Part shown: in pieces, positions 27,582 to 27,830 of the stretch
Layout of the letters: the number at the start of each line of letters is the position of its first letter
How positions within the stretch are numbered: the stretch's first letter is position 1
Source of the DNA: Clostridiales bacterium
GTDB lineage: Bacteria; Bacillota; Clostridia; Christensenellales; CAG-138
Reading direction: 5' to 3'
Assembly (NCBI GenBank): GCA_004558525.1
Contig: SFCQ01000003.1
Coordinates: 61,038-125,037, forward strand
Length of the DNA stretch: 64,000 bases
The notes under the pieces: generated by a model
Database searches by the model: none
Seen by the model: only the letters and a program-made list of their open reading frames with translations
What the model was told of the DNA's origin: nothing
Program-made: the position numbers and the translations under genes

Positions 27582-27604
27582 TAAAGGGCGGTATGAACCG
27601 CCCT
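27582..27604 (+). repeat. Left copy of the 23-bp direct duplication flanking repeat copy C
   Basis: TAAAGGGCGGTATGAACCGCCCT matches 27804..27826 at 22 of 23 positions. Confidence 0.85.
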
Positions 27605-27803
27605 CAGCCTGTCGATAAACCCCGGGGTTGTTAAGGAGCGGCTGCCCCTTAAGCTTTATTCCGGCTCTGACGGCATGTACGTCAGAACGGATGGAAACGT
27701 CAGGTTTTCGTACCTTGCGGGTTTTGCCGCCCGGGAGCGTGAGCGAAAGGCAAAACCCGTAAAAACTCGAAAAAGTGGCGTTCAGCCACTTTTTCGACAT
27801 CAG
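27605..27803 (+). mobile_element. Repeat family copy C (full length, TIR-bearing)
   Basis: Starts CAGCCTGTCGATAAA and ends TTTTTCGACATCAGA. Has the conserved core and all five hairpins. Confidence 0.85.
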
Positions 27804-27830
27804 ATAAAGGGCGGTATAAACCGCCCTTTA
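27804..27830 (-). terminator. rplT terminator hairpin; also the right copy of the 23-bp duplication
   Basis: AAAGGGCGGTATAAACCGCCCTTT, immediately downstream of the rplT stop region. Confidence 0.7.

Follow-up and report, generated by a model that had tools for sequence, protein, structure and literature searches.

A 200-bp MITE flanked by duplicated intrinsic terminator hairpins in an uncultured gut Clostridiales bacterium

The rplT–nfnA spacer and the MITE copies of the window

The window analysed here is a 64,000-nt stretch of contig SFCQ01000003.1 from a Clostridiales bacterium. Its rplT (27868-28224, minus strand) and nfnA (26562-27416, minus strand) genes are separated by a 451-nt spacer, which holds one copy of a short repeated element together with two copies of a hairpin directly adjoining its ends. 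The features of this spacer are as follows:

27582..27604, plus strand: left hairpin of the target-site duplication, on the nfnA side and away from rplT, present in all 10 strains
27605..27804, plus strand: copy C of the 200-bp MITE, antisense to rplT transcription, delimited by nhmmer and by alignment with other copies
27605..27619, plus strand: left terminal inverted repeat (TIR) of copy C, CAGCCTGTCGATAAA
27767..27797, no strand: right-end palindrome TCGAAAAAGTGGC-N5-GCCACTTTTTCGA, bidirectional-terminator-like, with its outer arm within the TIR
27790..27804, plus strand: right TIR of copy C, TTTTTCGACATCAGA, which no longer matches the consensus ...GACACTCTG at its outermost bases
27805..27827, plus strand: right copy of the duplicated target hairpin, beside rplT, the first of the two that the rplT transcript meets

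The duplicated pattern is TAAAGGGCGGTAT[G/A]AACCGCCCT, read as TAAAGGGCGGTATGAACCGCCCT on the left and TAAAGGGCGGTATAAACCGCCCT on the right, and the element between them begins with CAGCCTGTCG... at 27605 and ends with ...CGACATCAGA at 27804. The preliminary description placed the left copy correctly, and the right one, given there as 27804-27826, lies one base further. Both copies were re-read in the window and are indeed identical at 22 of 23 positions, the sole mismatch (G/A) falling in the loop. The pattern is found at only these two places on the plus strand of the window, and 100 dinucleotide shuffles gave 0 matches. The reconstructed single target site folds at -14.6 kcal/mol, the segment 27805-27830 is called terminator-like in the plus-strand terminator scan of the window, and the element ends adjoin the hairpins, which confirms that each copy is a complete stem-loop abutting the element.

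Copy C and both of its hairpins are present in 10/10 other strains recovered. The loop base is polymorphic in either hairpin copy: in three strains the two copies are identical at 23/23 positions, and one strain has the alternative base in both. Because this base varies among strains in either copy, the G/A difference is an ordinary polymorphism and not a mechanistic signature; the G-versus-A difference, which recurs in copies C and D, was rejected as a mechanistic mark on the same ground.

Altogether, the window contains four copies of the element (A, B, C and D) and two fragments. Those outside the rplT–nfnA spacer are:

6031..6054, plus strand: left target hairpin copy of copy A, AAAGCCCCAATATTTGGGGCTTTT
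6055..6244, plus strand: copy A, with the right end and the right hairpin copy missing in the window
10261..10301, plus strand: 41-bp mini-derivative consisting of the right-end palindrome only, with a single terminator hairpin next to it at 10303-10331
23351..23508, minus strand: copy B, 5'-truncated, with its left part replaced
30961..30982, plus strand: left copy of the pyrG terminator hairpin at copy D, decayed in the window
30983..31182, plus strand: copy D, with a perfect 15-bp TIR, CAGAGTGTCGAAAAA
31183..31204, plus strand: right copy of the pyrG terminator hairpin at copy D, followed by a T-run
55532..55586, plus strand: left-end fragment of the MITE, abutting the terminator hairpin 55508-55531

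The ends of the family, CAGnnTGTCGAwAAAC...TTTTTyGACAnnCTG, and its 15-bp TIR consensus, CAGnnTGTCGAwAAA, are conserved in 22 aligned copies. With a length of about 200 bp, the element occupies about 20 distinct sites among the fetched loci and is overlapped only by spurious 77-aa ORFs. Its interior comprises five conserved hairpins, some pairs of which show compensatory or G-U changes in the 22-copy alignment. The last hairpin is the terminator-like palindrome, the outer arm of which forms part of the right TIR; it received a terminator-like call, and GC/AU changes at its column pair 184-212 are compensatory. The TIRs, the length of about 200 bp, the multiple copies, the lack of a transposase gene, the flanking target-site duplication and the presence/absence polymorphism identify the element as a MITE, that is, a non-autonomous TIR transposon. 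No Rfam match was obtained at the gathering or the permissive threshold, with only sub-threshold resemblance to sraL and TD-2; the element is not a described RNA family.

The host, an uncultured 'Eubacteriales bacterium', is abundant in metagenomes of the pig and human gut. A scan with a core 22-mer found two MAG loci in the genome collection and 19 loci in metagenomes. BLAST of the element against plasmid and phage collections gave no match, and of the matches obtained when viral contigs were scanned with the right end and the core, one was a true end and the others were chance hits in coding sequence. No further polymorphic copies turned up in the strains that cover 36-64 kb of the window.

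Individual copies differ in how well they have been preserved. The duplicated hairpin of copy D is AGGACTTGCTTATrCCAAGTCC (22 bp), and its left copy matches the right one at 19/22 positions in the window and at 20-21/22 in three other strains (L002, L007, L010). In copy A, a ~50-bp deletion (window 6227-6252) removed the right TIR and the second hairpin copy; other strains (L030, L035, L037) keep both ends and a 24-bp duplication of AAAGCCCCAATATTTGGGGCTTTT, so the loss is a secondary deletion that erased the duplication. Next to copy B, a terminator hairpin (23325-23346) sits 4 nt past the right end. A further MITE copy, at 9821-10028 of locus L028, lacks its left end and left hairpin copy, and this deletion appears to involve microhomology (GGCGGCTG) between the target hairpin and the first internal hairpin of the element.

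Two observations concern genes beside MITE copies. In the PyrG variants P0121, P0126 and P0127, CTP synthase is called as 564-662 aa vs 536 aa, possibly by loss of the stop codon and reading of the frame into copy D downstream. FeoB is an intact 831-aa protein in L035 (6824-9319) vs a 137-153-aa fragment in the window (~10360-10821) and most strains, a difference due to a ~2.5-kb deletion polymorphism close to the mini-element.

Hairpin duplications and the alleles of empty and filled sites

Flanking duplications were surveyed for the copies in the window and elsewhere. Duplications of a whole hairpin, 21-27 bp long, were found at 11 independent sites, each with a different, unrelated hairpin sequence. 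In the window they measure 23 bp at copy C, 22 bp at copy D and 24 bp at copy A; elsewhere they are 24 bp (L011), 25 bp (L012), 26-27 bp (L020), 27 bp (L021b), 26 bp (L023a), 24 bp (L028a), 21 bp (L026b) and 26 bp (L036). In a control in which the left and right flanks of different copies were paired, the mean score was 1.1, and high scores came solely from variants of the same site. At least 14 of the about 20 sites adjoin terminator-like hairpins.

Copies with two unlike flanks (L019, L021a/L024) were left out of the evidence as possible assembly chimeras or recombinants. In these contigs the left flank of one site is joined to the right flank of another (L019; L021/L022 vs L024), which reflects either chimeric assembly or real recombination between copies. 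Duplicated terminators around 200-bp repeats break metagenome assemblies, and several contigs end inside the element (L013, L017, L018, L029, L040, L041). Such duplicated terminators can also be misread as tandem terminators or attenuators.

One target is available in both its empty and its filled state:

3899..3924, minus strand: unoccupied target, single hairpin AAAGGACTTGTTTGTGCAAGTCCTTT, downstream of a tRNA gene (3932-4002)

This site is empty, with one hairpin, in the window and in L035, L037 and L039. In L036 it consists of hairpin, element and hairpin, with a 26/26 duplication and an otherwise identical flank. An empty site with a single hairpin, as sought in the preliminary description, thus exists at this sister site. 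For copy C, no orthologous empty site was found, the insertion being fixed in all 10 strains. The rplT–nfnA junction is not kept in close relatives; the nearest NfnA proteins (93% and 85% identity) have other neighbours, and the nearest PyrG relatives are at most 87% identical. Tandem hairpins in relatives lacking the element, or a survey without recurrent flanking duplications, had been named as observations that would speak against a duplication, and neither occurred: the survey gave the 11 sites above, and the RplT variants of related species without the element are followed by a different, single rplT terminator, with no tandem pair. Given the recurrence at 11 sites, the empty and filled alleles and the single terminator of these relatives, it is close to certain that the 23-bp repeats of copy C are a true target-site duplication, and the original proposal that an entire Rho-independent terminator was duplicated holds.

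When the targets were reconstructed, they proved to be G+C-rich hairpins between A- and T-tracts, resembling bidirectional terminators, and the duplication spans the hairpin. In the folded reconstructed targets, most duplication boundaries are symmetric about the dyad. A weakly palindromic site (L031) has a 17-bp duplication, and sites without a stable hairpin have duplications of 8, 7, 5 and 3-4 bp (L015, L026a, L023b and L016, respectively). The duplication length is therefore not a constant of the family. At hairpins it stays in a narrow band of 21-27 bp, though the length of the G+C cores varies between 17 and 25 nt; a ruler measuring ~12 nt outward from the dyad would account for this band just as well as recognition of the hairpin foot.

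A second polymorphic site lies at two neighbouring terminators, those of nfnB and adh:

25095..25158, minus strand: second polymorphic site, unoccupied in the window, two terminators and a spacer
25135-25158, minus strand: nfnB terminator hairpin
25120-25134, minus strand: 15-bp spacer
25095-25119, minus strand: adh terminator hairpin

The filled allele is known from five other genomes. There, the element takes the exact place of the 15-bp spacer, with one hairpin on either side and no duplication. The short duplications and this spacer deletion exclude a fixed stagger on B-form DNA.

The filled strains (L005, L006, L008, L009, L014) differ from the empty ones also in the adh terminator (25095-25119), where the 6-nt loop is inverted from CAAAAG to CTTTTG and a C>T change perfects the stem, every empty allele having the other form. 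Either these changes are linked to an insertion that arose once, or they were left behind by repair synthesis across the hairpin. In the nfnA upstream region, an 8-bp indel (TAATAAGG) at ~27455-27475 separates L005, L006 and L008 from the other strains; these three also carry the nfnB–adh insertion, and L009 has the insertion without the indel.

Comparison with IS1182-family and other elements

The window and its surroundings in other strains encode housekeeping genes only, and neither Pfam lists nor a scan revealed a transposase, recombinase, Cas1 or reverse transcriptase gene in the window or within +/-10 kb of it in other strains. Searches of the window, of ~1 Mb of loci and of 36 viral IS1182-family loci, as well as pattern scans, yielded no autonomous parent with the same TIRs. 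The data contain no longer copies of the element, with which the preliminary description had proposed to look for Cas1-like, recombinase or reverse transcriptase genes.

The closest known parallel is IS1272, a member of the IS1182 family from staphylococci, which inserts into terminator hairpins irrespective of their sequence, removing the stem-loop and making no duplication (PMC4923244, PMC5678879). For comparison, IS1272 was taken from a plasmid via the plasmid-borne fabI (IR GAGTCTGGGACATAAA) and was combined with four other plasmid-borne members of the family and 36 loci from viral contigs. The 36 ends of 18 distinct full-length elements gave the consensus G(G/A)GGCTG(T/G)..CA.AA(C), and a core CTGTCG...AAAC is common to the MITE TIR and the IS1182-family ends (G(G/A)GGCTGT..CA.AAC vs CAGnnTGTCGAwAAAC of the MITE). 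Scored with a PWM built from those ends, the TIRs reach 0.5-8.5 bits, which places them in the top 0.005-0.2% of window 18-mers, with all 36 true ends at 10.4 or above. The MITE further resembles IS1272/TnSha1 and the IS1182 family in having terminator hairpin targets that are chosen by structure, with no primary-sequence consensus (PMC4923244, PMC5678879), and it resembles IS1272 in having a terminator-like hairpin just inside the element end. Unlike IS1272, it is only 200 bp long and encodes nothing. The main difference lies in the fate of the target: the hairpin appears to have been replaced in every IS1182-family relative examined, whereas the MITE keeps and duplicates it whole, and an abutting direct repeat was absent from 19/19 full-length IS1182-family copies. 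Direct repeats of 0-60 bp are given for the family in the ISfinder table, where long duplications may already be documented.

The element thus works like an IS1182-family transposon in its choice of targets and plausibly depends on such a transposase; membership of the MITE in this family is not established. The outcome itself has been anticipated on paper, since whole stem-loop duplication corresponds to pathway b of 'replacement by structure-dependent transposition' (Wan et al. 2017, PMC5678879, Fig. 13). That pathway was drawn as a hypothetical alternative without an example, whereas the MITE provides 11 natural examples and an empty/filled pair. The ISAs1 family was rejected as a source, as the end of the E. 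coli H-repeat, CAGGGnAAGAT, shares merely CAG-G with the TIR. The full-length IS1182-family elements themselves (L088-L123, L083-L085) have G+C-rich ends, GGGGCTG...CAGCCCC, and commonly lie between an A-tract and a T-tract, where the inserted element mimics a giant terminator stem; judged from these sequences, the arrangement is as would be expected if a terminator stem-loop had been replaced.

Other systems share single traits with the MITE. Casposons have TIRs and produce duplications of 14-15 bp, longer than usual for transposons. The likeness of both casposons and Cas1-Cas2 to the MITE is that a unit becomes duplicated when its two borders are attacked on opposite strands; they differ in using defined sequences (the leader-repeat or a specific target) and a fixed length, whereas in the MITE the length follows the target hairpin. 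Casposase and Cas1-Cas2, proposed initially as the nearest analogy, give way to IS1182/IS1272, with no Cas1 gene found in the window or the flanking loci and no fixed length; the comparison may be kept as a formal analogy only. Insertion in extragenic palindromes is also known from the REP- or palindrome-targeting elements IS1397/ISKpn1 and, among IS110/IS1111, ISPpu9 and ISPpu10; IS110/IS1111 elements recognise sequence via a bridge or seeker RNA (PMC11187229, PMC12288879). In contrast to the MITE, REP-targeting elements insert inside a specific palindrome, with small or no duplications. Class C group II introns home just after intrinsic terminator hairpins. They are, however, retroelements with a ribozyme and a reverse transcriptase, with no TIRs and no target duplication, and a group IIC intron was rejected because the element has no Rfam intron match and does have TIRs and a duplication.

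Classical MITEs (Correia, RUP, bcr1, ERIC, SPRITE) are likewise small, non-coding, highly structured, intergenic and multicopy and have TIRs, but their duplications are 2-9 bp and of fixed length. The IS200/IS605-derived PATE have no TIRs and no duplication and insert 3' of a fixed tetra- or pentanucleotide; this origin was rejected for an element with TIRs, duplications and no common flanking oligonucleotide. An element mediated by an integrase of the tyrosine or serine recombinase type was rejected as well, the flanking repeats being wholly different between sites, with no common att core.

A proposed route of insertion and its rivals

As a whole, the observations are best explained, with a probability of about 65%, by a MITE moved in trans by a DDE transposase that chooses its targets by structure and joins the element at 5' feet. 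The transposase, most likely of the IS1182 family, would pick intrinsic terminators, preferring their G+C-rich palindromes between an A-tract and a T-tract. The 3' ends of the element would each be joined, on their own strand, to the 5' foot of the hairpin, which is most simply pictured on an extruded cruciform. At a single hairpin, the two joins would lie one whole palindrome apart, and gap repair would copy the hairpin to both sides, yielding 21-27 bp. At two adjacent hairpins, the ends would use the inner feet, giving a stagger of opposite polarity and loss of the spacer; the element lying between the nfnB and adh hairpins with the 15-bp spacer gone is as the 5'-foot rule predicts. Where no stable hairpin forms, merely 3-8 bp would be duplicated. 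The staggered attack at both hairpin bases that was suggested at the outset is supported by these insertion outcomes, and we infer the 5'-foot rule and the cruciform target from the way in which they fit the hairpin duplication, the short duplications and the spacer loss alike.

After insertion, a complete hairpin would stand on each side, one with the upstream A-tract and the other with the downstream T-tract, and the element would add its own bidirectional terminator-like hairpin, so that termination of both neighbours should largely survive. Preserved termination would explain why copies persist and become fixed, and it seems to fit both the fixed old copies and the high copy density. A more specific proposition, that an integrase reading shape only captures the extruded terminator cruciform and joins the element at both feet, is given somewhat less than an even chance. 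An IS1182-type transposase whose attack polarity is reversed would be one candidate for such an enzyme, and a so far undescribed enzyme another. If this is true, integration would be independent of sequence and guided by structure, a 'safe-harbour' mode in which the terminator is restored on both sides, and an integrase of this shape-reading kind might attract interest as a tool for insertion irrespective of sequence.

The alternative with the most in its favour supposes a fixed stagger of ~24 bp on B-form DNA by a transposase that merely prefers terminator-like palindromes, with no extrusion. The tightness of the 21-27 bp band over cores of varying length speaks for it, as does the fact that the duplications often stop within the A/T extension of the palindrome and not at its end; it is nevertheless unlikely, being incompatible with the 3-8 and 17 bp duplications at other sites and with the spacer deletion between two hairpins. 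A Cas1-like integrase of the casposase type, attacking both borders of the palindrome and thereby duplicating it, would reproduce the outcome formally, a palindromic unit duplicated from its two borders, and would agree with the TIRs and the longer-than-usual duplications of casposons. Yet neither Cas1 nor any integrase is encoded in the window or the flanking loci, casposons make a fixed duplication of 14-15 bp at a sequence-defined site where the MITE makes 3-27 bp at unrelated sequences, and the MITE TIR resembles IS1182-family ends. We consider this origin very improbable.

Still less credence is given to the idea that the repeats are not a footprint of insertion and represent either pre-existing tandem terminators or att-type cores of a site-specific recombinase. 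Taken by itself, copy C, with all 10 strains filled and no empty allele, would permit such a reading. The empty allele of the tRNA site, however, has a single hairpin, which contradicts a pre-existing pair, the 11 sites carry 11 different repeat sequences with no common att core, only one rplT terminator is present in the related species, and no gene for a recombinase was found in the window or the flanking loci. It has also to be considered that the element is mainly a gene for a structured small RNA, spread by an RNA-mediated or recombinational route, for which the five conserved hairpins with compensatory and G-U changes favouring one strand, the terminator-like 3' end, a possible -35/-10 in the left part and the sub-threshold resemblance to sRNA models could be cited. 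This explanation is improbable, if slightly less so than the two preceding ones, as the element has TIRs, exact flanking duplications start and stop at the TIR termini, both orientations relative to neighbouring genes occur, no reverse transcriptase gene was found in the window or its surroundings, and there is no 3' tail and no 5' truncation gradient. An sRNA cargo would be no substitute for the MITE explanation, with which it is compatible.

That terminators can be targeted through their structure is already known. The documented case of hairpin-directed transposition has so far been IS1272, which destroys its target hairpin; the present MITE family is a natural case of the opposite polarity. 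The searchable literature contained no MITE with a whole-terminator-hairpin footprint, before-and-after alleles and a spacer deletion, and whole-hairpin duplication goes unmentioned in a 2024 review of prokaryotic MITEs (PMC10969869). With the before-and-after alleles, the geometry by which strands are transferred to a structured target can be tested directly. The family also points to a transposon strategy in which intrinsic terminators serve as neutral landing pads that are rebuilt on both sides, which would explain how a repeat attains a density of one copy every 10-15 kb or so in a streamlined gut bacterium.

The interior of the element has features of its own. In the 22-copy alignment (A2), G-U intermediates and compensatory changes across the five hairpins favour the plus strand of the element. 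Hardly any variation is seen in the unpaired stretch CGTACCTTGCGGG, and a candidate -35 (TTGTTA) and -10 (TAAGCT) are present in the left part. A small RNA of ~130 nt, complete with a terminator, may be encoded by the element. At the copy D locus (L001-L010), and also in copy C, an internal variable loop reads GCGGTAGCG, GCTAATGCG or GCGAATGCG depending on the strain, and the mosaic pattern of these variants at one locus suggests gene conversion between copies.
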